From Antedon mediterranea (taxonomy: Eukaryota > Animalia > Echinodermata), in NCBI RefSeq assembly GCF_964355755.1, contig NC_092672.1, forward strand, positions 1,860,001 to 1,924,000: a DNA stretch of 64,000 nucleotides, written 5' to 3'. Positions within the stretch are counted from its first letter, which is position 1, and every line of letters starts with the position of its first letter. The translations under genes and the position numbers were made by a program. The notes beneath the pieces are model-generated. The model worked only from the letters and a program-made list of their open reading frames with translations, was not told where the DNA came from and made no database searches. Positions 338 through 47,800 of the stretch are shown here, piece by piece.

Positions 338-358
338 TTAGTATTTATCAAGGCCATA
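338..358 (-). pseudogene. Detached last codons of the carboxypeptidase (YGLDKY*)
   Basis: Removing the element plus one TSD gives GGG AGA TAT GGC CTT GAT AAA TAC TAA, in frame with exon 9. Confidence 0.85.
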
Positions 359-362
359 TCTC

Positions 363-682
363 TAAAGAGACTGTTTATGTTTACTTATTAACCTAGGAGG
401 ACAATTAAGTCTCTTCGGTGTAACTACACACTCATCATTTGTACTCACCTAATCCTTTCTAGGCTGGTACGTGATGGGTATAGTTTGTGTCCTTCTTTGG
501 TTGTGTCTTCGCTTCAAGAGAGAGAGTTTTGCCTCTCGCACATTCAACGCCTGGGGCTGGTCGTGACGTATCTCGCCACTGGCCAGTCCCAGGGCCGGAT
601 TCGGGGGTTGAGTGCGCGTAGGCCCGGCGATTGGCTGTGACGTATAGATGACGTAACCACTAGCCAATCGCCAGGCACTACA
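363..682 (-). repeat. 3' LTR (320 bp)
   Basis: Copy of 12335-12654; preceded on the minus strand by a purine tract and followed by the TSD GAGA. Confidence 0.96.
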
Positions 683-720
683 ATCCTCCTCGTTTTATTT
701 TCTTTGTTTCCTGCCCCCCT
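683..720 (-). other. Polypurine tract
   Basis: Purine-rich ...GGGCAGGAAACAAAGAAAATAAAACGAGGAGGAT directly abuts the TG of the 3' LTR. Confidence 0.8.
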
Positions 721-797
721 GACTATTCTCTGACTGGTCTTCCCAAGGGAGACAGGCGCATTTTAGTTCACCGTCAGTGTCTGACATTGCTGTTCAA

Positions 798-990
798 TTT
801 GATATTGGATTTCAAGTTCATTTGAAAGTTCATTTGATTTCAAGTTCATTTGAAAGTTCTTTTGATTTCCAGTTCCTTTTAAAGTTCATTTGATTTCAAG
901 TTCATTTGAAAGTTCCTTTGATTTCCAGTTCCTTTTAAAGTTCATTTGATAGTTCCTTTGAAGGTGCACTTTGATTTTAAGTTCATTTTC
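798..990. repeat. Degenerate short-period tandem repeat (AAGTTC(A/C)TTTGA-type units) in the element 3' UTR
   Basis: About a dozen aagttc/cagttc units spaced 13-15 nt apart. Confidence 0.8.
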
Positions 991-1021
991 CATGGTGGGT
1001 CCTCCACTCCTTCCTCTTCTT

Positions 1022-1062
<41 letters not shown>

Positions 1063-1865
1063 GTAACACAACGGGGGGCACAGCCCCAACAAGAACAGGA
1101 TTTGAACAACTGAACACCAGAACGTCAAGGTGGGGGAATTACCCCAACAATTACAATTTGAACATATGAAAGCCAACAGGGGACTAAAGAGTCCCGAATA
1201 AAAAAATGTTGCCATAACAATCGAACAGTGGGCAATACATACGAACAATTGAAAAAAGAAATAAAGAAACAAGAAAATCAAATCCCTTCAAGCCATGTGG
1301 CATAGGGTATCCATCGGGTTGCTGACCGGCACCGCGTTCCAGGGAACACTGGTACCTGACAGCCCCCCGGAAGAGAACAAATCTGAGGAACACCGTTCTA
1401 GGGGTACAGAATTACAGATTTGAGAAAAGAAGGCACAAGCCTATGGGGATTGGCAAAAATTTAGCACACAACAGTAAAATTTTGTTCTGGAATTCCAGTA
1501 TATAGGGCTGACTGTTTGTGTGTATACAAAATATTTTAATTATGAGGGAAATTGTCAAAAAGAGACCGCACTGCCAATCGTAATTGAAACAAGGGACTTA
1601 CGGTCCCAGCTAAATAAGTAGAGGACATGTTGGACCTCAAATTTTGGGGTGGGAAGAGGATTTGCTCTTCGCCAATTTTTGGGCGTGCGGTGACTAAGGA
1701 CAGACAATTGTCCTGGGGTACAACAATGTTATACGCAAGTACACCAAGAAGGGGTGTACTGTATTCAAGTGATTAGAACGGTGTGGTATAGTAATAATCG
1801 TTTTGAAGAATTGAGTCCTGTTAAAGAATTGAGTTCTTTTACTTTTTTTTTTTTTTTTCTTTATT

Positions 1866-1909
<44 letters not shown>

Positions 1910-1945
1910 TATATATCCAAACCAACGGCTCCCGTGGCGTGATCC

Positions 1946-3727
1946 TTAGCTGCCCCATTCTTGCTCCAAGGTCAGCCCGTCCAGGAACACCTGCAGCATT
2001 CGGACCGCCGCTTCCCTGGTCTTTTTGTGGGCTGAGCGTCTGAGACAATCCGCCAGCCGCTGGTTTGCCTTGTAGGCCTCTTGGAGGAGACGTCTGTCTT
2101 CAGGCGTCGGTTCGGGGTGCGCCCCAAGGGCTTCACTCCGACCAGCCTGTGCCAACACTGGTGGTTGTTTGATGGAGACGGCTACCTTCTCGACAACTGC
2201 TGGTGCTGTCTCTTCTCTAGGTTGGGCTGGCCTTGATCTGGATGCCTCCCTTCTCCTGTTGATACTTGGAGGCGGTTTGGCTCTGCGAGACGCCCCACGG
2301 TGAGGAGTGAATCGATCCAAGAGATCGACCATCCCCCCCGGGTTCGCCTCCCAAGCCTCGGCCAGGAGCTCCAATAAACAATGTGGGTATAGCAGCGCCA
2401 GTGGACACTGCAGGTTGGTGATATCTACCCACGTTGCTGGCTCTTTGCATCCCACTGCCCGAGCGGTCAACCGCAGGATGGTCATCCACTTGTTGGACAG
2501 ATCGTGGGAACCTCGCGATGGCAGTTTCTGGCGGCACAGCGTCACTGCTCCCTCCAAAGTCGAAGCCTGCCTGGGTAACAGGGAGACCACTCCTTTGACG
2601 AACTCCCAGCGACGGCGGTGAGTTCTAGCGTCGTCCCTGATGTTTGCGGTTCCTATAAATCGGGGGGCGTGCACTAACAGGTGGTCTTTTGATGTGCCCT
2701 GTTGCACGGTACACGCCTTGATGGGGCAAGGGTAGCTCGTCCGCCGCAGTTTTGGTGGTGATGGACTATGTCTCCTTTCGGCGGTCGTGTGGCTAGCCTC
2801 TGTGGCCCCCGTGGGCGCCACTTGGCGTTCCACTTGAGCCCCAGAGGCATGACCACCTTGTGCGCGTCCTTGACTGGACTCGTCTCGGCGGTGACTTGTC
2901 CAACTGTCATCTGGCCGGAAGGCGCGCTTGCCTGGTTTCCTCGATTCTCGAGGTTCCACTTCTTTCTGGTGATCGGTGGACTTCTTGTATCGTATGTCCG
3001 TTGCTCCAAAGATCGGGTCCTCTGCCTGGGCCATCTTCTTCCCGACCAGGTCCCCGACGGACAGGGTACCGAGGTCTGGGCCCTCCAACCGGCAAGTTAT
3101 TCGGTCTGGTCCGATCGTTTGGATCACCCGACCTGCCACGACGCCCCTAGTCAGATCCTGAGCCAGGAGGCGAGCGGTGCAGTCGAGTGGCTGGCGAGGC
3201 GGCAACCCCGCAATATCGATGTTGGCTTCGAACTCGGTGCCATTCTGAAGCCTCACAATAGCATCGAACGAGCCCCTTGTTGATATCCGGTTAGTTCTCT
3301 TCAGGCGCACCTGCTGCCCAACACTGACCCGCGGTTCAGTATTTGGCCGCAACAGGAGCGGCGATGCTGGCCTCTCTGGTGAGGTGGAAACATTTTCCGC
3401 TGGCTGGCGCCTCCCTCCTTCTAGGAGTAGAGGAGACGTCGCTGGCGTTCTTCTTTGTGCTGGTGGCTCTGCTCGGTTGTTGTCCTCTGCCCCTGGGGAT
3501 AAAAGGAGTGCGGCCACGGCAGATATGTTTGTCGGCGGCGGGCCCTCTCCTTGCCCAGCGGGCAAGGGGCCGGACCCGTCCCGAGGTGGAGCTTCTTCTC
3601 CTCCGGAGGGTAGCGGAGTGGTCGCCCTCTCGGAGGCCCGGGCAGGGGCAGGCAAAGAAGGGAACTCCCTCTCCACTAGCTCTGCCCAGTCCATTGGCGT
3701 CACAGCTTCTGAGTAACTCTTTTCCAT
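1946..3727 (-). CDS. Retrotransposon ORF3, unknown function, not env-like
   Basis: ORF of about 600 codons between pol and the 3' LTR (track 1946..3769). The likely start is ATG 3727, after a splice acceptor at 3737-3735. No signal peptide or TM helix seen; has a CX4CX9HX3H motif. Confidence 0.8.
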   Translation of the reverse strand: MEKSYSEAVTPMDWAELVEREFPSLPAPARASERATTPLPSGGEEAPPRDGSGPLPAGQGEGPPPTNISAVAALLLSPGAEDNNRAEPPAQRRTPATSPLLLEGGRRQPAENVSTSPERPASPLLLRPNTEPRVSVGQQVRLKRTNRISTRGSFDAIVRLQNGTEFEANIDIAGLPPRQPLDCTARLLAQDLTRGVVAGRVIQTIGPDRITCRLEGPDLGTLSVGDLVGKKMAQAEDPIFGATDIRYKKSTDHQKEVEPRESRKPGKRAFRPDDSWTSHRRDESSQGRAQGGHASGAQVERQVAPTGATEASHTTAERRHSPSPPKLRRTSYPCPIKACTVQQGTSKDHLLVHAPRFIGTANIRDDARTHRRRWEFVKGVVSLLPRQASTLEGAVTLCRQKLPSRGSHDLSNKWMTILRLTARAVGCKEPATWVDITNLQCPLALLYPHCLLELLAEAWEANPGGMVDLLDRFTPHRGASRRAKPPPSINRRREASRSRPAQPREETAPAVVEKVAVSIKQPPVLAQAGRSEALGAHPEPTPEDRRLLQEAYKANQRLADCLRRSAHKKTREAAVRMLQVFLDGLTLEQEWGS

Positions 3728-3824
3728 ATTTGATCTGAAAGACATAATGAAAAGCACCTTTCCAATCATGGTGAATGTGAATTACAGTGTTAGTCAGCCC
3801 GGGGTGAGACGTTTGAATGCGGAT

Positions 3825-6800
3825 CTACTCGGCACACTTGGTACATTTAAATCGATCGATATCGATAGCTTCCGCTGGAGTAATGTTGACGCATGCTCCA
3901 TGGTACCATTCACCGCACAGATCGCACTCGATCATAAAACGCCCCTCCCATGGCTTCCTACAAGTACAGTAAATGCCGTCATCTTCGGCATCCCCGTCGG
4001 GGTCGGAATTCGTCAGATCAAGGTTGGTGATCCAATTTGGCAAATCCCGATCCCGGCAGAGCTTCAGTTTATCGTGGTGGATTACAAATATTTTATTGCG
4101 GAGACGTACGCGGAAGGCGTACGGGGCCAGCACCTCAGTGACTACCCCCGGACCCTTCCATGGCGCATTCAATTTCTTGTTTTTTCCCTTTATTTTGGTC
4201 TGGTCGAACACATAGACTTTGTCCCCAACTGCGTATGTACGCTCTAGTAGCTTAAGGTCGTATTGATACTTATTGCGCTTTTGCATTGATTTTAGATGTG
4301 TTCTTGCAATATCGTGCGCTAACTTCATATTTTCTACTAGGCCAGTGGTGTATGAATACGGATCAGTAATTGTTGTGCCCCCTGAAGAGCCGAACATGAG
4401 GTCGGGTGGTGTCGATACCTCCCTGCCCAGCATCATCAGGTTTGGTGTAGATTGGGTACTTCGGCATACCGTGGCCCTAATTGCACTCGTTATCTGGGGC
4501 AGATATTTATCCCAGTCCTTTTGTTGTTTTCCCACAAAACACCGGACCGCATTCATCACAGTCAGATTGTAACGTTCTACCTGACCGTTAGCTGAAGGAC
4601 GGTACGGCGTGGTGTGGGTCTTATTAATGAGGAGAATCTTGCAGAGCTCCCCGAAGAGATCGCTCTCAAAATTCGGACCCTGGTCCGAGTGCAATTGCAG
4701 CGGCATACCAAATCTGGAGAAGAATTCCCTTACCAGTACCTCGGCAGTCAATTGTGCAGTCTGCCGGGGTACCGGGTAGGCCTCTACCCATTTTGTAAAT
4801 TGATCCACTACCATCAATACATACAGATTCCCACTACTGGACTGAGGAAATGGTCCTGCAAAGTCTATGTGAACCCTTTCCATTGGGGCTCCCGAGTGGT
4901 AATTAATCTGTTCCGAGCGGCCTTTCTTATTCCCCCTCTTGTGGCTGTTACATATGGGACAGCCTATGACATATCTTTCGATATCCCCGGCCATCCCAAA
5001 CCAGTAGTATCGTTGTTTAAGACGGAGCTTAGTCCGTTTGATACCTTGGTGGGCGGCCGATGGGAGATCATGATAAGCTTGCATTGTTGTTTTAATCAAT
5101 GACTTCGGAAGAACAAGAAGGTCCTCCTCCCCCTGTTTATCTTGAATGAATAACACCCCGTCTCGCAAGCACATCCTTTCCTTACTCAACCAATAATGTT
5201 TTGTTGCCGGGCTAGTAGCGAAAAGCTCATTTGCCGAAGGCAGCGCGTCACCCTTAAACCAGAGTAACACGGGCCCCAGCTCCTGGTCTTTCCCCTGAGC
5301 CTCTTGGATTTCCTGGGTAGAGAAACCCCAATGAGATTGCTCCGCCCTATCCGTGGTTAGTTGATGAACATGTTGGGAGGGCAGGAAAGGCTGCGAGATA
5401 GGTTGATTTTGATGTGTGTGCACACCCGTCAGCGGAATGACGTCATCAACCTGGTCGATGAACGCCCCCCATTGCTGGTGCGCACGTACACAGTACTTAC
5501 ACCCCTTGCAAGGTAAATCAGATAATTTCACCCCATGTTTGTAATGATTAGCCATTTCAGGTGCCCGTGACAATGCATCGGCATTGACATGTTTTTTACC
5601 AGGGCGGTGTTCTACTATCATTACATACTGGCTAAGTTCTTCTATCCAGCGGGCCAGTTGCCCCTGGGGTTCCTTGAACCTCAGAAGCCAAGTCAGGCTA
5701 CTGTGGTCGGTGCGAACCTTAAATGGTTTACCCAGCAAGTAGTGTCTAAATTGACGTGTGAATTTCACAATCGCCAACAGTTCTTTACGGGTGGTACAGT
5801 AGCGTTGCTGCTCTGATGTTAATGCTAAACTAGCATAAGCAATCACACGCTCCTGACCCCCTTGTAATTGGGACAATTCACCTCCGATTGCCTGATCTGA
5901 TGCATCGGTATCAAGGACGAACATGTCATCAGGATTCGGAAGTGACAAAACTGGTGGTTGTGTCAACTTAGATTTAATTGAGTGAAATGCATCTATTTGA
6001 GGTTTGTCCCATCGGAACTCCCCCTTCTTTGCAACTGCATAAAGAGGTCTTGTTAATTCGGCAAAGTGGGGAATGAATGCCCTATGGTAATTTGCTAGGC
6101 CAAGGAAGCGTTGAGCCTCCTTGTAGTTCTTAAGATCAGGCCACCCACACACTGCCGCGATATCGGTATCGGACATCTCGAGAGTGTTGCGGGAGACCAT
6201 ACGGCCCAGAAATTCCACTTTCCTCTGGAAAAATAGACATTTCTTTGGTTTTAGTTTCAGATTATATTGTCGGAACCGACCTAGGGCCTCCCTTAAGTTA
6301 TTGCTGTGGTCTTCAAATGATTTGCCCAGGATAACCACGTCGTCGAGGAAAGCCAGAGCAGTCTGCCAATTTAGACCACGCAAAACCATATTGATGACCC
6401 TAGAGAAGGTTGCCGGACTATTACACAGGCCAAAGGGCATTTTTACAAACTCGAACAGGCCATATTTGGTGACGAAAGCGGTCTTTTTGCGATCGTCGGC
6501 ATTGAGGTTTATTTGCCAATAACCAGAAATGGCGTCCAATTTAGAGAACCATTGATTACCCGACAATGTGTCGAGGCAATCCTCTAAAATTGGTAATGGA
6601 TATACATCCTTTACCGTGATGTTATTTAAAGCCCTATAGTCTATGCAAAATCTGACGTTTCCATCCCTTTTCCGGACTAGGACTGGGGCGGAGGACCATT
6701 CAGAATTGGACGGCTGAATGATACCCCCCTCCAGCATCTTATCCAGTTCTTTGCGTTCTTCATCGGCAAAGTGTAACGGGGTACGGCGAAGTCGGTGTCT

Positions 6801-7751
6801 CACTGGAGCTGCATCAGACGTATCTACCCGGTGATCAATATTAGGGACCTCCCCAATATCGAATTGATCCCTGGCAAACACATCTGCGAACTCAGTAAGC
6901 ATCTCCTTCACCACCCCTGCCTGATCTTCCGATAAATTGGTAATAGAATTTTCATAAGTTGTACGCATATGATGTGGCAATGCGTGTGTGGCCGGAGAGG
7001 TTTCCCCCGGATGGGTGAAAACTTCCCCAGCTACACAGGATTCTATTTCAGATGCAAACCCAATTTCTAAACCTGCTTTGACAGTTACGTATTTGTTGGT
7101 TGTATTGACCATGCAGATCACAGGCGATTCACCTGCGGTGTGCACAGTTCTAGGAATTGTTAGGTTATTGTGGCCATGAGGTTCTACAATGTAGTCATGC
7201 AATTTGGTATCTAACTGACATGAAACATAGGCTATTGATGTAGGTGGTATCACACGCCGCTTGCATGTGATTACTCTGCAGCTAGAGGGCGTTGAGGGCG
7301 CCATACCATTTTGTATTAATGGGACAGCAACCCCACCGACCTTTAACAGCATTTCGCCTATGTTTACATCTGCGTTTGTGCCCCTCATGAAATCTAAACC
7401 CAATAGCATTTCGTCTTCAATCGGTGCAACATAGACATAAGTGGGATAGATGTTTGGCCCAATTTCGAGTTGCACCGGACCTATTTTTCGCCCTTCCATC
7501 GAACTACCCTTACCCGCCATGAATAATTTAATAGTACCCACTGTGGGCGGAGTAGGGGTAATTGAATGGTATAAGCTATCAGATATAATAGATACAGTCG
7601 CTCCACAGTCGACCACAGCGTCAACTTTAACGGATGCGACCGTAACTTTAGTGTAGAGTAATGAATTAGATTTCACTCGCTGTACAATAAGTGATTCAGT
7701 TGGGTCGCACTCTGGAGTGAACAATTTGGAGTCGACCCCTAGTCGTTTAAA
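3825..7751 (-). CDS. pol: Pol (protease, RT, RNase H, integrase, PHD finger), expressed as Gag-Pol by -1 frameshift
   Basis: VVDCGA protease; RFCIDYR, MPFGL and FLDD RT motifs; TDASD..ELLA..TDH..NADALSR RNase H; H-x6-H..CPIC zinc domain; HIDF/SDQG/VERYN DDE triad; WKGP motif; terminal C4HC3. The frame is open from the slippery site at 7751. Confidence 0.96.
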   Translation of the reverse strand, partial: FKRLGVDSKLFTPECDPTESLIVQRVKSNSLLYTKVTVASVKVDAVVDCGATVSIISDSLYHSITPTPPTVGTIKLFMAGKGSSMEGRKIGPVQLEIGPNIYPTYVYVAPIEDEMLLGLDFMRGTNADVNIGEMLLKVGGVAVPLIQNGMAPSTPSSCRVITCKRRVIPPTSIAYVSCQLDTKLHDYIVEPHGHNNLTIPRTVHTAGESPVICMVNTTNKYVTVKAGLEIGFASEIESCVAGEVFTHPGETSPATHALPHHMRTTYENSITNLSEDQAGVVKEMLTEFADVFARDQFDIGEVPNIDHRVDTSDAAPVRHRLRRTPLHFADEERKELDKMLEGGIIQPSNSEWSSAPVLVRKRDGNVRFCIDYRALNNITVKDVYPLPILEDCLDTLSGNQWFSKLDAISGYWQINLNADDRKKTAFVTKYGLFEFVKMPFGLCNSPATFSRVINMVLRGLNWQTALAFLDDVVILGKSFEDHSNNLREALGRFRQYNLKLKPKKCLFFQRKVEFLGRMVSRNTLEMSDTDIAAVCGWPDLKNYKEAQRFLGLANYHRAFIPHFAELTRPLYAVAKKGEFRWDKPQIDAFHSIKSKLTQPPVLSLPNPDDMFVLDTDASDQAIGGELSQLQGGQERVIAYASLALTSEQQRYCTTRKELLAIVKFTRQFRHYLLGKPFKVRTDHSSLTWLLRFKEPQGQLARWIEELSQYVMIVEHRPGKKHVNADALSRAPEMANHYKHGVKLSDLPCKGCKYCVRAHQQWGAFIDQVDDVIPLTGVHTHQNQPISQPFLPSQHVHQLTTDRAEQSHWGFSTQEIQEAQGKDQELGPVLLWFKGDALPSANELFATSPATKHYWLSKERMCLRDGVLFIQDKQGEEDLLVLPKSLIKTTMQAYHDLPSAAHQGIKRTKLRLKQRYYWFGMAGDIERYVIGCPICNSHKRGNKKGRSEQINYHSGAPMERVHIDFAGPFPQSSSGNLYVLMVVDQFTKWVEAYPVPRQTAQLTAEVLVREFFSRFGMPLQLHSDQGPNFESDLFGELCKILLINKTHTTPYRPSANGQVERYNLTVMNAVRCFVGKQQKDWDKYLPQITSAIRATVCRSTQSTPNLMMLGREVSTPPDLMFGSSGGTTITDPYSYTTGLVENMKLAHDIARTHLKSMQKRNKYQYDLKLLERTYAVGDKVYVFDQTKIKGKNKKLNAPWKGPGVVTEVLAPYAFRVRLRNKIFVIHHDKLKLCRDRDLPNWITNLDLTNSDPDGDAEDDGIYCTCRKPWEGRFMIECDLCGEWYHGACVNITPAEAIDIDRFKCTKCAE
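7702..7751 (-). promoter_or_regulatory. -1 programmed ribosomal frameshift signal (U UUA AAC plus downstream hairpin)
   Basis: TTTAAAC at 7751-7745 in the gag frame just before the TAG; pol is in the -1 frame; 6 nt downstream GGGTCG-ACTC...GAGT-G-CGACCC can form a stem (7738-7702). Confidence 0.88.
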
Positions 7752-9949
7752 GAGTCTTCTTCATCTACATCGAATTCATGTTCGACTAGATTTAGCCTTC
7801 TGTTTTGCTTGAAGTTTGATTTATTATTATGTGGTCTATTTGAATTATTGGGAGTCTTGGTGGGGCATTCCCTTGCGAAATGACCCTCCTCACCGCAGGA
7901 GAAACAGCCGGCCCCTCTCTCTGGAGATCTACGTCGAGCCGGGGATGGTTGCCTCTCGCGCGGCCTATCAAGGCGATCTAATACCTTGTCCATTTTCGAA
8001 CAAAGGGCCGAGACCTGTTCTTGCAATTCGTTTATTCGGGTGTTGGAAGCATGAACAGATTCCCGGTCCAGAGAACGATCTCGATATCGGGCACCATGGG
8101 GCGATTGCGGACGTGCAAAACGCACCACGCGCCGTTTATCCTCCCTTTTAGTTAATTCATTAATCCGCCCAAAGTCACCCTCAGCCTGCAAGTTGCACTC
8201 CTGAACACTAGGTTCTGGGTACACCTGGCAGACAGTGGATGGCTGAGGTGGAGTTTCTGGCAGATGTGTAGTTGGTGTTGAGGCCAATTTAGGTGTTATT
8301 ATTGGTTCATCGTTGACACTCTGGTGCCATTCGATAAGTCGGATAGCTTCAGGAATTGTTTTGGGCCGCTGCAGGCTAGCAAATTTGCCGCTTGGCCTAT
8401 CAACACACCCACGACAAAACTTTAAAGCTGCCATTTCTTGGATCCAATGATTGGTGGCCCCTTCACCCCCTTGCGTTCTATACGCCTTGGCTGCGGCTTT
8501 AAGCACTCTGGCTCCCCACTCACGTAGGGACTCCAGGTCTTTTTGGATAAGTTTCTCAAATTTTGCAGCCAGAAGAGATTGGTCTTGGGCGGAGCCAAAG
8601 TATTCGTTAAAACTAACGATGAGCCTCTCGTAAGAGACTGCACTACCATGCAAGGTCAGCAACGTTTGTAAGTACGCGGCTGCCTGGCCCCTCATGCTCA
8701 TGTGGAAAGCTTCCTTGCGTTCGGCCCTAGACCATCCATTAATCTGGGAAAATCCCTCAAATCTATCATGGAATATTCCCCAGTCGTCATCCCCACCGTG
8801 GAATTCTAGATGTTTTTGCGGCCTGAAAGGCTGTTGACCCCGATGATCACCGCGGCCCCACTCGTCCCGCAAGGGTAGGCGGTCAAGCCTATTCCTCTCG
8901 GGGCGAGGAGGTCGAAGGAATCGTCCGAGATCGTGCTCATAATTTTGATGATCATTTCTCCCACCATAATCACCCATCTGATAATTATCTCGGTTGATGT
9001 TTTGTAAGGGTGGTGGTGGTTGATTATAATTCATTCCAGGGGCGGAAGGATGACGAGGACGATAGCAATCGTTGTCCAGGTACCCCCGGTTGTAATTATC
9101 ACCTCCGTACCCATGGTCACCTTGAGGGTAGGAAGGTCGAGTTCCCCATGAGGGATCTCGGTTCTTATTTTGAGCAGTAGGGCGTTGAGGTAGGCCATGT
9201 TCAACAGCGGCATCCCCCCGTCCTACGTTGGTGTTACAATTTATTTCTTTTTCTCGATCCGAATGATCGGGAGGGTAGCCGTGTTCTACAGCTGGATAGC
9301 CATAAAAACCAGCCCCAACCCGGTCATAAGGATGGGCGTCTTCGTTTCCCCCAGCTCCCGTGCGAGCACATGTACTGGGAGACGGTGAAGTATCCACCAT
9401 GTGCACTCCAGAACGGTCAAGAGATCTACCCCGACCAGCAGCAACAGGGCCGCTGGTCGCAGTGTCACCCCTTCTCATTGGAGTACGTGGAAAAACCTCA
9501 TCGCCACCCGTATCGCCCGCCCGGTGGTTGTTGTGGAGCGTACGGGAATCTGGGTTGCTAGGCACGCTTGCCTGGTCTGCATAGCGTTGATCGCCTCCGG
9601 CCCCCGGATGCAAGGATGGGTCGCTCGGCAAAGGTGGTACGGGGGTGCAGGCCTGCTCGGGAGCTTGATCGTGCTCTCCCGAACCGTTACCAGCATCTCC
9701 ATACCCCCCAGTCGGCGGTCCCATTCTCACATACCGAGAGTTAATGGCATAGTCCATGTTAAAGGACAAAAAGTCGAACGAATTATCGCCGACTGCCCGT
9801 GCTAGATCTTGTGGGTTTGTGATATTCCCATAATTATCCCTGTAGGCCCTGATTTTCTCGGCCAAGGGTGGGGGTAAACCCTGTGGGAAATCTTTCGCCC
9901 TACGGACAAAGTTGATCTTAAAAGGTATTGGTTCGATGGTTTTTGGCAT
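7739..9949 (-). CDS. gag: Gag (736 aa): N-terminal HhH-like segment, long disordered region, capsid-like core, CCHC zinc knuckle
   Basis: CFSCGEEGHFAREC knuckle (7865-7906); capsid-like FHGGDDDW..F..RFE...NGWS and QKDLESLREW motifs; lies upstream of pol. Confidence 0.92.
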   Translation of the reverse strand: MPKTIEPIPFKINFVRRAKDFPQGLPPPLAEKIRAYRDNYGNITNPQDLARAVGDNSFDFLSFNMDYAINSRYVRMGPPTGGYGDAGNGSGEHDQAPEQACTPVPPLPSDPSLHPGAGGDQRYADQASVPSNPDSRTLHNNHRAGDTGGDEVFPRTPMRRGDTATSGPVAAGRGRSLDRSGVHMVDTSPSPSTCARTGAGGNEDAHPYDRVGAGFYGYPAVEHGYPPDHSDREKEINCNTNVGRGDAAVEHGLPQRPTAQNKNRDPSWGTRPSYPQGDHGYGGDNYNRGYLDNDCYRPRHPSAPGMNYNQPPPPLQNINRDNYQMGDYGGRNDHQNYEHDLGRFLRPPRPERNRLDRLPLRDEWGRGDHRGQQPFRPQKHLEFHGGDDDWGIFHDRFEGFSQINGWSRAERKEAFHMSMRGQAAAYLQTLLTLHGSAVSYERLIVSFNEYFGSAQDQSLLAAKFEKLIQKDLESLREWGARVLKAAAKAYRTQGGEGATNHWIQEMAALKFCRGCVDRPSGKFASLQRPKTIPEAIRLIEWHQSVNDEPIITPKLASTPTTHLPETPPQPSTVCQVYPEPSVQECNLQAEGDFGRINELTKREDKRRVVRFARPQSPHGARYRDRSLDRESVHASNTRINELQEQVSALCSKMDKVLDRLDRPRERQPSPARRRSPERGAGCFSCGEEGHFARECPTKTPNNSNRPHNNKSNFKQNRRLNLVEHEFDVDEEDSLND

Positions 9950-12322
9950 CCCTGGAAGATAAGAAAAATCCTTCCCAATTAGTTTTATTCTTCATTTATA
10001 GGCCTGGTAAGTACTCCCGTCCCCCCGTGCATCCAACCAGCGAGCGGAGGTAGCATCGGTCTGATGCTGTTTCGATGATTATTTTTGCGTCTCACTCGTT
10101 GGGTGCCCAGAGAGAACAGGGGTAGTACCAGCCCAATACACACCTAGCGCTAATCACAGTTCAATCAAATATAATTACAATGTAAGGGTTACCTCCCCCA
10201 TCACAAAAATTTTAGCTAATTATGTGTACATATAATGATTTATGGGCACTCACATTATGCCACGAAAATAAAATAAAAGGACTACACAAATAGTACAGGT
10301 TAATGAAAAGAATATATGATATACAAGGCATGTGATAAGAGATACAAATCGTTACCAGATGTTATTATAGCCAAGTGTCAATGACATGGGCAAAACAAAA
10401 CATTACAGATTACACACTGTGACAGTTAAGAATCGAAATTCATACAAGACATGTTGAAAAATAATCATGATAAGAATAAGAACATACAAGAACATGCGAA
10501 AATAAATGAGACAAGACACGGAAAAAATTTTATTTTGAAAGAAAAAGGCATACAAGACATATAAATAATTCTAGGCAAAAACCTAAGATAATCAATAAAT
10601 AAATAAATATGCCTAAAGTATCACAAAAAATAATATTCTAACCAAAAATCAATAAATATTAATAAAATAAATATAGGTACCGGCCTAGCCTGTACCCTAC
10701 AAAATAATTCAATTCAAAAAATCTATGCTAAATAAATAGTACTGTACACTAATTCAAGACATACTAAAAATAATAACAACAGGAATAATTAAGCCTATGC
10801 ATAATTACCCCAAAAAATTAAAATAAATCATGAAAATAATAGGTAGGAAATTCAACTAGAATAACCACCTAATAAATAAAACATCGTCTAACTAAAACAA
10901 TAAAAATTTACTAAATAATTTTACGTCGAAAATAGTTCAATAAAAATAAAATAAATCAATCGGAAAATAACTTAATTCCAAGCAAACAATATACACGAAT
11001 GAATAAATAAATAAATAATAATCCTAATGTCATTCCCACCCAAGTGGGAGAGACAAAATAACTATAATCTAACTACCCCGCGATAGCACAGGCCAGAAAA
11101 TTCCAGCACGTCTATCGTCAGGCCATAAATCAATCCAGACAATACACAGACCGGGAGACGAGCTCTCCGTTCTGCATAAAACTAAAATCTAAAAATAGTA
11201 AGGAGTATCCCTATATTATTCTACCAATCAGAATACAGTACTCACCTAGCGTCATCATCGAAAGTCGTAAACAACTGTTGACCTCGTTGATGCAAGCAGC
11301 TATCCGCGAGGGTAGCAAGCGAATGCGTGCTCGCGATTGGCTAGCGATGAATCACACGTGAGAAGACTGATAGGCAGAAAGTTGCTGTTTGCTCAGGAAT
11401 GGCGGCATTCTCAAAGCAACGGCAGTGTAGATAAACTACTGTTTAACCCCGTTGTTCGTGAACACAAGTCGCCAAACCCGAGTCGGATTACCCTAACAAG
11501 CAACACCCTCCAATAACCTCGTTCTGTTGGTCGTAGGTTATGGTAGTGTAATTTAAGGATTAAAAATAATGATAATAAAAATCGTGGATTTGAATAAGCT
11601 AATAAATAATCAAAATACGCGAGAGATGCCAACCACAAAAAATGGCGTCACTCACTAAAAAATTGTTTCGAAATTAAATTTAATATTTTTCCTACAAATT
11701 ATAAATTTGCTAATTATTATGTTTTGTACATTTTTCCAATAATATTCTGAATCACGGGCCAGACATATTCATTGTTCTGGAATCACGGGCCCAGTGCGTT
11801 AAACATACAATAAAAAACGCTGTTCCATGTTCACGTGCATGGTATGTACGTAGCTTCGGCTAGGTCACGGGCCCAGGGCCCAGCCACATCGCTACACACA
11901 CTAATATCTTTTTCGGATCATTAGGAAATAAAAAATGTACCTATCCGAAGAATCAGAGTACAAATGGGTCCCCCATAAATATACTGTCTGACAATTCGGA
12001 TTACGGCACAAATCCAAGACGGAGAAATAATAATATAATTTACTATAAACAACTCCCGACGGCTCGACCCCATCGATCGGACGAAACCTGCAGGCACGAC
12101 AGCAGATTTCGGCCGCGAGACGGAGACGAGTCGTTGACGAGGTGGGAGATGGGTAGTGGGACGTGCTGCCCAGCAAACACAGAGGTCGTTCCTCCAGCAT
12201 TGCCTCTGGGCAACACCACAGGGCGAAACGAGATGTGCGAACTAGAACAACACTCCTACCTTCCCAAACAGCTACACGCGGTTGACAGTGTCCCCCGCCG
12301 AGGCAAAAGGAACACCAGTTTA

Positions 12323-12333
12323 CCTCGTCGCCA
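12323..12333 (-). other. Primer binding site, complementary to the tRNA-Ser(GCU) 3' end
   Basis: TGGCGACGAGG starts 1 nt after the 5' LTR; complementary to CCUCGUCG-CCA, the 3' end of metazoan tRNA-Ser(GCU) as recalled. Confidence 0.85.
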
Positions 12334-12334
12334 T

Positions 12335-12654
12335 TAAAGAGACTGTTTATGTTTACTTATTAACCTAGGAGGACAATTAAGTCTCTTCGGTGTAACTACA
12401 CACTCATCATTTGTACTCACCTAATCCTTTCTAGGCTGGTACGTGATGGGTATAGTTTGTGTCCTTCTTTGGTTGTGTCTTCGCTTCAAGAGAGAGAGTT
12501 TTGCCTCTCGCACATTCAACGCCTGGGGCTGGTCGTGACGTATCTCGCCACTGGCCAGTCCCAGGGCCGGATTCGGGGGTTGAGTGCGCGTAGGCCCGGC
12601 GATTGGCTGTGACGTATAGATGACGTAACCACTAGCCAATCGCCAGGCACTACA
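12335..12654 (-). repeat. 5' LTR (320 bp, TGTAG...CTTTA)
   Basis: No mismatches to 363-682 found by eye; followed on the minus strand by 1 nt and then the PBS. Confidence 0.96.
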
Positions 12655-13257
12655 TCTCCCCAGTACAAGGACTGATGGATAGATCTCTTCACCAGTCGGT
12701 ATGATTTGGTTGGCTGGTAACAGGAATCCATAATCACCAGTATCTCGTAGCTCCACCACGTATGAGTAGTTGGTTCCTAAGACACCACACGCCCAGTCAA
12801 GACTGGAACCTGAAGAAGCATCTGCAGTAAGAAGAACGATCACACAGATTATAAACTTGAAAACATCATGACTGATGAATCATTTTCATGAATTTACGTT
12901 TAGGCCTAGGAATCAGATTTTAAAAACCTTGCATCATGCAAATTCTCGCCTTGGTGGCTTATTCGAGATATGTAAAGATAAATATACTGTATACCCTTGT
13001 GAAGTCGTCTATGTATTGTGATTATATTCCCTTCTTTTCAGTACCGGTACAGCAGAAAACGACCCCACATTACATCAAGCAAGTATCAAGCAAGGATGAT
13101 TCCATATTTAATACATCTTAGAATGTGACATAAACATGGCATAATTGTAAACTTACACAATGTTTCAGCCAATGGACCGGATGTATATTCTTTCCCATGA
13201 ACCTTCTTGATTTCCGCTACAGCCTCATTTCCAAGAGCAAGCTACAGAAATGGTTAA

Positions 13258-23020: not shown

Positions 23021-26000
23021 TTAGCAACAGTCACTTTTCTGTTTTCCTTCAGTATGTGGACTTCCTGACAGTGTTATGGGTTTTTCTGATTCTAAAATAA
23101 GAAAAATAGTTTATTTTAATCAAACAATTTGTTTATTTGTTAATTGCCTAGCCTTATTCAGATTCTAAGAATGCGCTGCTTATTGAATTAATACAGTAGT
23201 TGTAACAGTTGCACAAGCTATCACAACACATATTAGCTTGTAAGCATGCTCAGAACTTGTTTATTCTCACTTACTACTATTGCTTAGCAGATTACTCCCG
23301 CCTCCTATCCTTTTTCCAACCATCCTCGACTCAATATCATCTAATTCTTTCCGAACAGAAAAATCAAATGAAAGCGCTGCTACCCTTTGAAAAAAATCTG
23401 CTACATTTTCCCCTGCAAGAATTAAAAATTAATCAAGTACGTAATTATATATTTCTAGTTTCCTGGACTTTCTGCTGGAAATATTTATATTTATTTATTT
23501 TAGGCAAGCCAAGGTTTATGAGCACTGTAATTTCCATTAATATTTTGGACAATAAATGAATCTGTATTCTCACTCACGAGAACGATCAAAGCATATTGAT
23601 CAAAACGTCAAGAAATTCAACAATTCTTTATACGTGATGTAACTTTATAAACATAAGTCATTAAAATTATCTCATCTTTATCGCTATCTCATTAATGTAT
23701 TTTCAGTATTGCTAGAGTACATACTAAAACTACCCAAATAATAAACAATAAGTGAATGTTGTAACGGATTGTGTCATATGAGATTTTGGTTATTGTAAGT
23801 CACATGGTTTCAGTTGTGTTCTTACCAAGACATTCTTGTTTGCATCAATTTGTTTTTTTAAAGTACTAATGTATAAAATATTGTGGTTGTCGTAGAGTAG
23901 AACACCTATTAAGGGGACACCTTTAGGACCTAACAAAGTGTCTTCTTAATAGGGACACCTTCAGGAGCCAACAAAGTGTCTTCTTAATAGGGACACCTTC
24001 AGGAGCCAACAAAGTGTCTTCTTAATAGGGACACCTTCAGGACCCAACAAAGTGTCTTCTTAATAGGGACACCTTCAGGAGCCAACAAAGTGTCTTCTTA
24101 ATAGGGACACCTTCAGGACCCAACAAAGTGTCTTCTTAATAGGGACACCTTCAGGAGCCAACAAAGTGTCTTCTTAATAGGGACACCTTCAGGAGCCAAC
24201 AAAGTGTCTTCTTAATAGGGACACCTTCAGGACCCAACAAAGTGTCTTCTTAATAAGGGTTGATCATAGTGTTAAAACATTTCTCCTTGTTTGTTTCACA
24301 GAAAAGAATACATTAATGGGGGTGTTCCCTGAACAGAGATGTCTACTATGAGGTTTTTACTGTATGTTGATCTATGCAATCCCTATTGTGTGATTGTTTG
24401 AATGTGCACAATACTTGCCTGTTAAAGATGATACAGCCCAGTATTCTCCTTGGATTTCATTGGCTAACTTTGTGGCCAGGCCCTCTAACTCATGTAACTG
24501 ATGATCTGCCTGAGAAGTCATAAAAAGTAATTATTTCACTATATAAAATGTCAAAGGAAACATAGACATAAAGGGTTTGACAAGATTGGTGTGGTAATGT
24601 GGGTGTGGTAATGTGGGGGTGGAAAGATGGGGTGGCAATGAGTATATATTTAGATAAATAAATGAAAAAAAGGGTGAAAGTACACAAAAACAATTGTCTT
24701 ACACATAGATCTCTTTTTGTTCCAACTAAGAAAACGTGAGCGTCTTTTCTACACTCGTGTTTCGCTTCATCGTACCATTTTCTAGCGTGTTGAAGGGTGT
24801 ACGGGTCGGACATGTCAAACACCACGATCACAACTAACAGAGACATAGAGTTTACGGTAATTGTAATTCTGTAGCGGAAATTTCTGGTAAAACTTATCAA
24901 AATAACAGATCAATATCCAACAGTTAGTAATCGATACTAAACCTATTTCAAGCAAGACAATCTAACAGGACAATATAGGAACTTGTAACAGTCCTTTGAT
25001 CTTATGTCTGGCTGCCACAAATACCAACAGTACTGTAATGTACATATTCTCCGTAGCGCTCGGTGTCTGGGGCGTGGAACTGATCGTATCGCAGCCACAG
25101 ATAAAGCCTTTTGAAAATCTGCGTAGATAAATTCTAAGTTAATTTGGGGATATAAAAAAGTAATTGCAAGTAACAATACCATGTGCTCCCCTATAGTAAG
25201 CCGCAGCTATACATTTAAATCGTTCTTGACCTGCTGTGTCCCATCTGAAAAAAAGAGATTCATGTATTTATATATACCGTATATAATTGAGTATAGTCCC
25301 AGGGGGGCTGGGGTACAAAATTTGAAATTGTGATCTGATTGCCTTATTAATGATGCATTTACAGAACCATTGTCTGTCTAAACTCAAACTAGTCAAACTA
25401 GTTTGACAAAAAAACATGTGATGTGCCCAAATATGGTAGTGATATGCTTAAATATGGTAGTGATATGACATCATCATGTCCATTATAGTGAGTGAGTTTA
25501 TACTTGCACGGTAGTAATAGTACAGTAGTACGTCACCCTGGTCAGTCACAAAGAATACATGACAAAACATATTTATTTCTACCCTTAAAATGTATAATTA
25601 ATATGAACACTGAAATAATTAAACAAAATCTTAAATATTCTACATTGTGTTTCTTCATAAAGATGACATTTTCCACTTACATTTGTAAATTAAACGGTAC
25701 ATTCAAAATATCGAACCTCTCTACTTCAAAGTCGACTCCGATTGTAGCTTTATAATCCCGATCAAATACTTCATGACAGAAACGGTTGACAAGGCATGTC
25801 TTGCCGACAGCTACATCGCCAATTACAATCGCTTTGGAAACTTTTAATCTGTAAATATAAGCATTGATTAAACAAATTACTTAATGAAAAAGGTCAGGTC
25901 ACGGCGGCATGACTTGTCCTAAACTCACTTACCCTACAGTTCCAGTTTTGTTCGACAGGCACGCTGTTCTTACTTTAGGGGTGAATTCATTTTGTTTGTA

Positions 26001-30118: not shown

Positions 30119-32078
30119 TTTTTTTTTTCAAAAATGGCCAAAATATAGACTTTTTAAAATTCAATTATTATGCAATAATATTGCCATATATGCACATATA
30201 TTGCGTTATCATCATCTTATAGAGTCATAGTAACCAGTTATGTAAAAAATTAAAAGGATCGAAATTTTGTCATTTTTCGAAAATTTTCCTGTACTTTTGC
30301 CATTTTTTTACCCTATAGCACAATAAACATGCGCAGAGTCGAATAATGGCTTCTGCGCATGTCAACTATGCTATAGTAACCAGTTTTATCGAAAAATAAA
30401 AAGGTAGAAATTTGGTAGTTTTTGGAAGAACTCCCTGTACTATAGTACAGGGAAATTTTCGAAAAATGGCAATTTTTTTGACCCTTTTTGTTTTTTGACA
30501 TAAATGGTTACTATAGCACGATAAACATGCGCAGAGTCGAATAATGGGTTCTGCGCATGTCAACTATGCTATAGTAACCAGTTTTGTCAAAAAATAAAAA
30601 GGTCGAAATTTGGCCATTTTTTGAAAAAATCCAAATGGCAATTTTTTGACATAAATGGTTACTAGAGCACAATAAACATGCGCCGAGTCCAATAATAGCT
30701 TCTGCGCATGTCAACTATGCTATTGTATATTATAGTACAGGGAAATTTTTGAAAAATATCTATTTTTCGAACCTTTTATTTTTTTGACAAAAATGGTTAC
30801 TATAGCACAATAAACATGCGCAGAGTCGAATAATGGGTTCTGCGCATGCCAACTATGCTATAGTAACCAATTTTATCGAAAAATAAAAAGGTCGAAATTT
30901 GGTCGTTTTTGGAAGAAATCCCTATACTATAGTAACGGGAAATTTTCGAAAAATAGCCATTTTTCGACCCTTTTGTCTTTTGACATAAATGGTTACTATA
31001 GCACAATAAACATGCACAAAGTCGAATAATAGCTTCTGCGCATATCAACTATGCTATAGTATATTATAGTACAGGGAAATTTTAGAAAAATATCCATTTC
31101 TCGACCCTTTTATTTTTTTTACAAAAATGGTTACTATAGCACAATAAACATGCGCAGAGTCGAATAATGGGTTCTGCGCATGCCAACTATGCTATAGTAA
31201 CCAGTTTTATCGAAAAATAAAAAGGTCGAAATTTGGCCATTTTTGGAAAAAATCCTTGTACTATAGTACAGGGAAATTTTCGAAAAATTACCATTTTTCA
31301 ACTCTTTTATTTTTTGACATAAATGGAAGTAATCGCAGAGTTGAATAATGGGTTCTGCGCATGTCAACTATGCTATAGTAACCAGTTTTATTGAAAAATA
31401 AAAAGGTCGAAATTTGGCCATTTTTGGAAAAAATCCTTGTACTATAGTACAGGGAAATTTTCGAAAAATTACCATTTTTCAACTCTTTTATTTTTTGACA
31501 TAAATGGAAGTAATCGCAGAGTCGAATAATAGCTTCTGCGCATGTCAACTATGCTATAGTAACCAGTTTTATCGAAAAATAAAAAGGTAGAAATTTGGCC
31601 ATTTTTGGAAAAAAATCCCTGTACTATAGTACAGGGAAATTTTCAGAAACTGGCCATTGTTCGACCCTTTTATTTTTTTATATAAATGGTTACTATAGCA
31701 CAATAAACATGCGCAGAGTTGAATAATGGGTTCTGCGCATGTCAACTATGCTATAGTAACAAATTTTATCAAAAAATAAAAAGGTCTAAATTTGGCCATT
31801 TTTTCAAAAATGACCAAATTATCAACTTTTTAAAATTCAATTATTATGCAATAATATTGCCATATATGAACATATATTGCATTACCATCATCTTATAGAG
31901 TCATAGTGACCAGTTATGTTCAAATTTGGTCATTCTTTTAAAATTTCCCAGTAGTACAGAGATTTTTTCAAAAATGGCCAAAATATCTACTTTTTAAAAT
32001 TGAATTATTATGCAATAATATTGCCATATATGCACATATATTGTGTTATCATCATCTTATAGAGCCATAGTAAACAGT
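30119..32078. repeat. Complex tandem array of palindromic units
   Basis: About 9 copies of GGTTACTATAGCAC..CATGCGCAGA..TCTGCGCATG..TGCTATAGTAACC at 150-200 bp spacing; CCTGTACTATAGTACAGG spacer palindromes; a second ~120-bp unit at 30119, 31800 and 31964. Confidence 0.9.
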
Positions 32079-44800: not shown

Positions 44801-47800
44801 ATTGAATTGTAATAATAATTTTGACAAGGTCTCAAAAGTTTGATTTTATATTATATTTAATTTACTGAAAACAAACTTTGGTTGCTACTGCAGTTTCTAC
44901 ACTGTATTTACTCCTTTAAACATGTTATGTAATAATTTTAGCTATTTTAGTGTGATCATAAACACAGTTTATTGCCGTGAACAGACTTCATAAAAAAATG
45001 AAAAAATAAATAGAAATATTATGATGACACCCTAACATGATGTGCACTTTCATAGTTATCATATCATTATTTTAATCAATTAAATTGGTTGTGGTCCAGA
45101 TAGTAAAAATGATAAAACCTGAACAAGATTGGCGCCAAAAAATTGGAAGCTATCAAAGATGCTATTGGCAATAGTCTCTCATCATTATAGATTAATTCCT
45201 CATTTATTATCTTAGATCAATCTTGATACTTTAATCTCACATGAGACGCATTAAGTGATTTCCTACATGACAACATTATAAGTTCATTTATTGATTGTTC
45301 TTAGAAATGCAACGATGGTGTATGAACTTTGCTAATTTCATTTTAAAATGCTTATATCTCCTAACCCCTTCTATGTGTCAGCCTTACCGTATTAAAGGCT
45401 GTGAAACATATGCGAAGCAATATCTTTTTAAAGCTCTGTCTAAACTATCAAACTAGTTTGACAAAAAAAGTGTGATGTGCCCAAATATAGTAGCCAGAAG
45501 CCCAAATATGGTAGTGATATGACATCATCATGTCTATATATGGGCACAATACAATATCTGTTTTAAGACTACAGCCTATTCCAGGGTCAATTAGTTTGGT
45601 ACTTTTAACAAGTTTTTACTGTAGCCTATATTATATATTTTTTTTAATGTTTAAACTTCCCGTAGAAGGCGAGTTCTTAGATGTCATGACCTAGTTAATT
45701 CTGCCATACTTAAATTTAACTGATTGAAACCCAGGAGCTTAAGTGTGTACCTGTAGTTAAACCATTTCATTTGCAACAAAAAGATGTGCTGTATTTTTAT
45801 CATCATTATTATCATCATTTTTATCATCATTATTATCATCATTATTATCATCATTTTTATCATCATTATTATCATCATTTTTATCATCATTTTTATCATC
45901 ATTATTATCATCATTATTATCATCATTTTTATCATCATTATTATCATCATTTTTATCATCATTTTTATCATAATTTTTATCATAATTTTTATCATCATTA
46001 TTATCATCATTTTTATCATCATTATTATAAACTCAACTATAAAACTGTAATCATAATTTTATCCAATTTCTTACACTAAATGATTGATTCTAAATTAAAT
46101 TAAAACCGTTTTGAATCTTGAATATTTTTCAGTAAATGTTTTCAACATAACTGAAGCAGTCACCTAATGAAAATGTATATATGCCACCATTTCTATGGTA
46201 GATTGGGGTATAAAGGTGCAAAAGTTTAAATGAAAGAGGATTACTATGTAAAGTATATATGGGCTATCATGACAGGTTATATATAATGTTCACAGCAAAA
46301 TGAACCACATAAATATACAGTATATATACACGGCAAACAACCTTTTATTGAAATTTAATAAAATTGTTATATTTTAAAATGTTTATTTTATTGTTAGGGA
46401 ATTGAATTTATCAATATGTATCATTGCGATCAAACACTTTTATGACATTTTTGTTCATTGCTACTAGTTACTTTAGTATATTTTACAGTTAAATGTTACA
46501 TACACAGCCTATACAGATCTTTCTATAAATATTTACTAAATGATGGATATGAATTACAAATTGTATAATATTTTATATTAATTTTTTGTTTAAATTTGTT
46601 AATTGTTAGAAAGTTTTCTTTAAATGACTATAGTGATACAAAACAATTTTAATTTTAGAATGACTGCAAACAGCGTCAGTTCATTAAATGCTTGCACTCA
46701 ACAATTTGTAGTTTAATATTATGCCTAGTAAATTTACCCTGCAATTACAGTGATAAAGCATTGTGTTTAGGTGTACAACAAATCCCCTATCAAGCTTGGT
46801 ATCCACTTGGACGCAACGCTAGGACGTAGGCGCAACACAATTGAATTGACCAATCACAAGCAACAATTCGGGTAATCCATCGTGTCGTACGGATTAGTCA
46901 AATCTCTTACGTTGAACTTACGGCCTTGCGTTGTGTCCAATTGGGAACCAAGCTTTAAAATTTAAACGTCACCAAAATATTTCATTTTCTAAATTGTTAG
47001 CAAATTCTTGAGATTGAAAGCAATGAAGAGCATAGATAAAAAGCACTATCAATGTGAGTAGTCTATAAAAGGGACTAAACGCTTGAACGACTCGACGAGC
47101 AAAGACAGTGAAGCAACCAAGCGTAACAAACATCCGCACATTCTTATAAACCAATCAGAGTTGCGATTACTTCCGATTTTGAAATTTCTTATAAAAAACA
47201 CTCAATTTCAGGATTTGGTGTAGTTGCAGAAACTATCACAACACAAATTGGTTTGTAAGCATGTGCAGATGTTTGTAACGCTCTATTGCTTCATAGTATT
47301 GAATGTCGTGTGTGCAACTGAAAAGTCCAAAATGTGAGAGATATACAACAAAGCAACTGTGTAGAATAACATCTGCATTTGTTTGGTTTTACCTGATGCG
47401 TTAGCGTGACTCGTATAGCCACCACGACCTGTCGGCGGTCGACTGTTCCGTCCAAGCGGATAACTCTGACCAGAGTTTGACAATCTGCTATAGCCTTTAA
47501 TTTTCAAACCACATCTTATTTTAACCATTACAAAAATCATTGCGAAAATAAAAATTATAAAAGCATAATTCAGAAAATTCTTAAATACGAGAAAGAATTT
47601 AAAATATTTGTTTGTAATTTCAGTTTTAAGTACGGGTAATAAATCGTCTATTATGTCTATGTTAAGCCGTGAATCTAAGATTTCTCAATTGTAGCTGATA
47701 CGATACGGAATGTTATGAATCGTAGATTGTAATAACTGTGATACATAATGTCAGGATATTTTACACCCTGTCAGAGAAATTTTGATATTTCTAGAACAAA

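Follow-up and report, generated by a model that had tools for sequence, protein, structure and literature searches.

The window, by which we mean the whole stretch of 64,000 nucleotides analyzed here, was found to contain a complete Ty3/gypsy LTR retrotransposon on the minus strand at positions 363-12654. Two LTRs, a target site duplication, a gag gene and a pol gene with the order PR-RT-RH-IN were all identified, as expected for an element of this type, and the three frames gag, pol and ORF3 were undamaged. The 5' LTR (12335..12654, minus strand) and the 3' LTR (363..682, minus strand) are each 320 bp long and identical at 320 of 320 bases, and the insertion is therefore probably recent. The element is flanked by a 4-bp target site duplication (12655..12658, without strand, repeated at 359-362). 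A primer-binding-site-like sequence located one base past the 5' LTR (12323..12333, minus strand) is presumably a match to tRNA-Ser. The insertion hits a zinc carboxypeptidase gene (M14 family) of the host and splits a coding exon (12655..12819, minus strand; Pfam E 1e-11) a few codons ahead of its stop codon; the carboxypeptidase frame resumes past position 362 and reaches its stop (342-362, minus strand). Owing to the insertion the C-terminus of the carboxypeptidase would become LTR-encoded sequence. The AT-rich flank of the element carries tandem arrays with units of 38 bp (23876-24334), about 181 bp with inverted arms (30227-31892) and 12 bp (45733-46100).

The gag open reading frame (7739..9949, minus strand) is intact and encodes 736 amino acids, with its first in-frame ATG at 9949. 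It overlaps the likewise intact pol frame (3825..7760, minus strand; protease, RT, RNase H and integrase, from the ORF and Pfam), and a heptamer in the overlap (7745..7751, minus strand) is one that we assign to the slippery-site type. Pol is in the -1 frame, and its expression would depend on frameshifting. The leader between the primer site and the gag ATG (9950-12319, minus strand) is 2370 nucleotides long and contains 37 ATGs, so splicing or internal entry is likely needed for gag translation. The integrase ends in a PHD finger (3834..3968, minus strand; Pfam E 6e-8, PDB E 1e-14), which in the PDB comparison was nearest to the fingers of PHF2/PHF8/KDM7A and BPTF. These fingers read H3K4me3. 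ORF3 (1946..3769, minus strand; about 600 amino acids) contains a C2H2-like finger and a helical domain (2357-2770) recognized by a family profile (E 1.7e-11, the lowest score of 38). A pyrimidine tract within 3727-3760 (minus strand) ends in AG at 3736-3735, shortly ahead of the third of the in-frame ATGs of ORF3 (3727), and might provide a splice acceptor for an ORF3 message of its own. Copies related to the region 7700-10400, about 80-99% alike, were seen in sequencing runs of two organisms, some of them with internal deletions in the Gag linker. The Pol relatives that carry names came from Lingula, Pinctada, Elysia and Batillaria, which makes a host among the marine invertebrates likely.

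The first-pass annotation had proposed that Gag begins with a ComEA-like helix-hairpin-helix (HhH) module. The 44 residues on which it was based correspond to Gag residues 11-54, encoded by 9919..9788 on the minus strand, while a plus-strand reading of 9788..9919 is interrupted by stops. By Pfam, the family profile and the structural model, the complete domain, of HHH_3/ComEA type, spans residues 1-65 (9755..9949, minus strand). It is followed by a linker of about 300 amino acids (8834..9754, minus strand) that is polar and rich in proline and glycine; its composition (70% polar residues, proline or glycine and 19% hydrophobic residues) suggests that it is disordered. The capsid (CA) region (residues 373-548; 8306..8833, minus strand) was recognized by the Pfam families PNMA and Retrotrans_gag, both weakly and below cut-off, and a CCHC zinc knuckle of the nucleocapsid type lies further downstream (7862..7909, minus strand; Pfam zf-CCHC E 3e-7).

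Judged from its own sequence, the N-terminal domain is a marginal match. Pfam HHH_3 (PF12836) matched the window Gag with E 0.001 over profile positions 21-48 of 65 only, and the 19.6 bits obtained did not reach the curated cut-off of 27 bits. The domain alone matched Bacillus subtilis ComEA (8dfk) at E 1.7. In the ESM Atlas, Gag residues 1-75 fell with HHH_3 clusters at 0.82-0.88, which is under the 0.9 mark and was used as a lead only, and the whole Gag fell with generic Gag clusters. Word-based protein searches with Gag did not return relatives, but a HMMER search with the whole protein gave 1367 proteins at E≤0.001, of which the best 150, mostly matched in the CA region, were analyzed. No relative was found among the viral contigs searched, and the 16 tblastn matches to plasmids were all at chance level.

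The evidence for homology comes mainly from these relatives. One Gag-Pol protein already carried an HHH_3 domain by automatic annotation, and we used it as seed for a family profile from which the window sequence was left out. With this profile an N-terminal HHH_3-type domain was found in 75 of the best 150 Gag relatives; it started within the first 45 residues in 73 of the 75, and it was present in 57 of the 68 relatives having at least 200 residues ahead of CA. Pfam HHH_3 independently identified the domain at E≤0.001 in 44 of 150 relatives (29/75 and 15/75). An alternative explanation for the half of the Gag matches without a recognizable domain, that it had been lost, was rejected: many of these proteins are cut at a later start, and one of them (P0245) shares its CA with a locus that has the domain (L079). 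The left-out profile gave residues 1-75 of the window Gag 16.4 bits, compared to 8.9 bits for the best of 5000 shuffles. When all 1086 reading frames of the window were searched as a control, an unrelated stretch came close to the domain (10.7 against 11.0 bits), and for this reason the case for homology rests on position and motif order and not on score alone. The window domain holds the residues I-N-F, A, I, R and G-N-I-T in the order of the family. It has the lowest family score of 107. Its best-kept segment runs from the hairpin position through helix 2 to the G-N-I-T turn (residues 24-46; 9812..9880, minus strand) and reached z 13.3 against 200 shuffles, none of which scored as high, whereas residues 7-24 (z 0.3, 67/200 shuffles as high) and residues 44-63 (z 0.8, 36/200) did not stand out. 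On this sequence evidence we regard the homology of the window Gag N-terminus to ComEA/HHH_3-type domains as confirmed, mainly through the relatives. The original description of a well-matching second half and a degenerate first hairpin agrees with the segment scores. Neither of the outcomes named at the outset as fatal to the claim, no predicted HhH fold and no conservation in related Gags, arose.

An alignment of 31 rows, made up of the window domain and 30 domains derived from the loci, was used for a profile search of the PDB and for AlphaFold2. The profile, with the window sequence among its rows, matched EEPD1 (E 1e-19, over two domains) and ComEA (E 6e-13) and also KIF22 and Tex; per domain, ComEA scored higher (48.6 bits) than EEPD1 (40.2 bits). 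The model guided by this alignment had a pLDDT of 82.8, with a first helix of under 4 residues. In a wide structural search ComEA came first (Z 6.7, rmsd 2.9, 63 aligned residues), followed by Tex, another ComEA, TEFM and Spt6; a Z below 8 can reflect a common arrangement. Photosystem II subunit U and GspK, neither of which we know to be a DNA binder, were also in the fold list and count against a DNA grip. A model from the single sequence (pLDDT 59) recovered the two main helices, but had no HhH protein among its structural matches. The check by AlphaFold and Foldseek had a divided outcome: Foldseek ranked ComEA first for the alignment-guided model, but only at E 0.66, and gave no match at E≤0.001 for either model. 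The window domain is predicted to fold like the ComEA DNA-binding domain, and since the ComEA match needs the family alignment and the single-sequence model is without an HhH match, this assignment leans on the family.

In ComEA the second glycine of hairpin 1 and the K62/K63 positions are required for DNA binding. Binding or uptake of DNA by Vibrio cholerae ComEA was abolished when the hairpin glycine G60 was replaced by a bulky residue, when K62/K63 were lost or when one of the two HhH motifs was missing (excerpts of PMC3879209), and transformation of B. subtilis requires ComEA K164 and K199 (excerpts of PMC9747964). We mapped the window residues to the ComEA lysines through the alignment to 8dfk, in which an offset of 56 fits all four lysine numbers. 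The window residues L29, N56, F60 and S62 align to K164, K193, K197 and K199, and none of them is a lysine. Hairpin 1 reads G-L-P in the window, with a proline at the second glycine of the G-h-G motif, and the second motif retains only h-G. Among the clade domains, which have a median pairwise identity of 29%, the second glycine of hairpin 1 is present in 90 of 105 (89 of 104 in another count) and both glycines in 65 of 104. A basic residue is found at the positions of V. cholerae K62/K63 (+2/+3) in 63 of 104, and the structural arginine in 99 of 106. Three properties of the clade count against a DNA grip: a second G-h-G hairpin was found in just 2 of 107 domains, the position of the most important ComEA lysine (K164/K63) is lysine or arginine in only 20 of 105, and the domain as a whole has no basic character (median net charge -1). 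Nine of 104 relatives lack both the second glycine and the basic residues. From the hairpin to the turn, the window domain is 37% identical to its relatives and these are 38% identical among themselves, while the corresponding values for CA are 28% and 46%. Because of this difference, and because the contact residues are absent, the core of the window domain appears to be maintained and its DNA-contact surface not. Any grip on DNA is therefore likely weak or gone in this copy, which without the second glycine and the four ComEA lysines is a poor representative for DNA binding. Degenerate hairpins do not form a single lineage; on the CA tree they occur at scattered points, and the window Gag is there a long unsupported branch.

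The analysis covered 106 loci that carry a related pol. Calls for HhH as well as PHD were possible at 28 of these; the remaining 78 lacked the length needed for one of these calls or for the pair, and several contigs were circularly permuted. The 28 callable loci comprised 19 with HhH and PHD, 4 with HhH only, 5 with neither and none with PHD only. A PHD was found in 103 of 120 Pol matches. The suggested co-occurrence of the Gag domain with the integrase PHD was accordingly seen in so far as the PHD never occurred alone, but HhH is the more widespread of the two, and the four loci with HhH only led us to reject the possibility that they are inseparable. ORF3 had been counted among three accessory chromatin/nucleic-acid modules. 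It does not represent a chromatin module of unnamed kind: the ORF3 of relatives combines a C2H2-like finger with a helical domain and a C-terminal TatD nuclease, the last identified by Pfam in 5 of 8 tested. The TatD histidines and acidic residues show no variation across the 23 ORF3s that were aligned. No TatD match was found in the six frames of the window element. HhH and TatD were both present at 20 loci and both absent at 3, and TatD was called absent in the presence of HhH at none of the 106 loci. In a quick search for the RT/RNase H tree (60 rows, unnamed relatives only, midpoint root), a single clade of 50 rows (SH-aLRT 100) is characterized by HhH and TatD, and a clade of 35 rows nested within it (SH-aLRT 100), which includes the window element, by PHD; in the 10 rows outside, HhH, PHD and TatD were absent wherever callable. 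As each belongs to one clade on the tree, the co-occurrences represent single events and are not independent. The locus nearest to the window element on the RT tree, L015, has a canonical HhH domain, as have L010 and L080. Locus L002 is likewise without the second glycine, but its contig includes a TatD-like stretch, and the link between TatD loss and hairpin wear that we infer is based on the window element alone.

Other domain combinations were met among the relatives. The ORF3 at L022:3514-4680 has a GDSL/SGNH hydrolase ahead of the finger and helical domain, and TatD was not found on that locus. The Pol relative P0086 has a precomputed Tpt1/KptA RNA 2'-phosphotransferase domain (PF01885). 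Loci L068-L091 and L095 come from records titled as MAGs of bacterial symbionts (Sedimenticola, Thiodiazotropha, SUP05), which contain whole contigs of these animal-type retrotransposons; these are likely host contamination.

The reading that we tentatively prefer, and which in our judgment falls a little short of an even chance, is that the HHH_3 domain was inherited throughout the clade as a weak, sequence-non-specific DNA grip tethering the particle to host chromatin, and that this grip has been weakened or lost in the window copy. The domain is placed at the Gag N-terminus across the clade by homology and is predicted to fold like the DNA-binding domain of ComEA. The long polar linker would set it outside the capsid shell, a position that we assume for the N-terminal domain of Gag, and apart from the packaged genome handled by the zinc knuckle. 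Most relatives would have one working hairpin, that is, a G-h-G motif with a nearby lysine or arginine, which would be too weak singly, and the many Gag copies of a particle could provide avidity. Avidity is proposed because domain number matters for EEPD1: its (HhH)2 domains fail to bind DNA by themselves, and binding increases as more of them are present (excerpts of PMC12988330). The particle might then be held on chromatin ahead of site selection by the integrase PHD, in the manner of MLV p12, which tethers the capsid-containing complex to chromatin through histones (excerpts of PMC6021111). In the window lineage DNA binding would have been relaxed along with the loss of the ORF3 TatD, with the fold still maintained.

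The domain could instead be a pseudo-HhH module for protein interaction or assembly throughout the clade, with no role in DNA binding, serving Gag self-association or contact with a host protein or the ORF3 product; the window copy would then be fully functional. The second hairpin motif missing in 105 of 107 domains, the median net charge of -1, the nine relatives without second glycine and basic residues and a window core helix conserved though the hairpin is not would all be accounted for, and (HhH)2 domains mediate the dimerization of XPF-ERCC1 (excerpts of PMC12988330). However, 90 of 105 domains have the second glycine and 63 of 104 have basic residues beside it; kept over deep divergence, this is the pattern expected of DNA contact, and we consider this explanation unlikely. 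A complex prediction for HhH and ORF3 of the relative L087, made without alignments, scored 0.00 and speaks neither for nor against such contact.

We give about the same low probability to the domain binding the element's own nucleic acid, for packaging or protection of RNA or cDNA, or for holding DNA for the ORF3 TatD in the way that HhH serves the EEPD1 hydrolase. It would fit with HhH and TatD marking the same clade (20 loci with both and 3 with neither), with the invariant TatD residues of all 23 ORF3s and with the combination of a worn HhH and no TatD in the window element. However, co-occurrence within one clade amounts to a single event, and locus L002 in part goes against the pattern; a zinc knuckle is already present in Gag, and the 300-residue linker would fit a position outside the shell.

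That the window domain is a decaying and dispensable relic with no function appears very unlikely. It does have the lowest family score of 107, a shortened first helix, an N-terminal half no better than shuffles and a Gag on a long branch. Against this, the region of helix 2 shows the same degree of conservation as among relatives, in contrast to a much more diverged CA, and of the three copy differences that fall in residues 1-65 (among the 40 of 299 listed) two are synonymous and one leads to a hydrophobic residue like that of most relatives. A chance resemblance of an unrelated N-terminus, which could be argued from the score below the Pfam cut-off, the near-equal control in the window and the single-sequence model without an HhH match, is scarcely credible for a domain found exactly where relatives identified through CA and RT have theirs, with the family motifs in order, a score reached by 0 of 5000 shuffles and a canonical domain in the nearest locus of the RT tree.

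The preferred reading, a chromatin tether worn in the window copy, can be compared to known systems. The DNA-binding domain of ComEA (PF12836; 8dss, 8dfk, 2duy) is of the same profile family and predicted fold as the Gag domain, and the two share the N-terminal strand motif and a helix 2 with Ala, Ile and Arg followed by Gly. In ComEA both hairpins work and certain lysines are essential, while the Gag clade keeps hairpin 1 only and the window copy neither its second glycine nor the lysines; ComEA acts in DNA uptake, whereas the Gag domain belongs to a retrotransposon capsid protein. The tandem (HhH)2 of EEPD1, the C-terminal domain of KIF22 and the HhH of Tex/Spt6 were matched by the family profile or the model and are likewise flexibly tethered HhH domains, but unlike Gag these are host proteins with other partner domains. 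Such animal genes are possible donors of the Gag domain. MLV p12 and the chromatin-binding sequence of foamy virus Gag (excerpts of PMC6021111) would be functional analogues as chromatin tethers encoded by Gag; they are short histone-binding peptides and not homologous to the Gag HhH, which is a folded domain of a family that binds the DNA backbone.

Chromoviruses are Ty3/gypsy elements with a chromatin reader on the integrase. Rotifer Vesta/Juno elements have an ORF3 with a DEDDy exonuclease or GDSL domain (excerpts of PMC5408684). Both resemble the present clade in combining the Ty3/gypsy layout with an integrase chromatin reader or a nuclease-type ORF3, and differ from it in that the reader is here a PHD, the ORF3 nuclease of the relatives a TatD, and Gag itself has an extra domain. 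The CERV protein of the Caenorhabditis elegans element Cer1, an RNA export protein, has a leucine-zipper-containing helical hairpin (excerpts of PMC10309623); it too is encoded by an LTR element and its domain has been termed helix-hairpin-helix, and it is set beside HHH_3 by description only.

Among the articles searched, we found no published description of an HhH-Gag/PHD/TatD architecture; one may exist in supplements, Repbase, GyDB or subscription journals. Term look-ups gave no mention of TatD or HhH in PMC6238403, PMC8556966, PMC13524379 and PMC5408684, and the passages of PMC10309623, PMC3286476 and PMC7248198 had no bearing on this architecture.

Altogether, the HhH domain of Gag is real and found throughout the clade, its component parts belong to known families, and the window copy is an atypical, worn example. 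The first-pass interpretation is supported in part, for the type of the domain, its conservation and its co-occurrence with the PHD. To our knowledge, a Ty3/gypsy Gag would not be expected to carry a folded domain of DNA-binding type where retroviruses have matrix or p12. In its broadest form the interpretation would be that a widespread and undescribed clade of animal Ty3/gypsy elements gained, stepwise, a three-part kit for targeting and DNA processing: a folded HhH outside the capsid that would hold directly on to the DNA of host chromosomes, a TatD nuclease encoded by the element and, for one subclade, an integrase PHD of the H3K4me3 type. The active window element would be a natural mutant in which the nuclease is gone and the tether worn. 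Taken as a whole we hold this to be rather doubtful. As HhH on Gag is the rule in a large clade, it is nevertheless relevant to the way in which such particles arrive at chromatin. Natural contrasts for binding tests are offered by the nested pattern, with HhH and TatD first and PHD later, together with a recent element that has a worn hairpin and no TatD.
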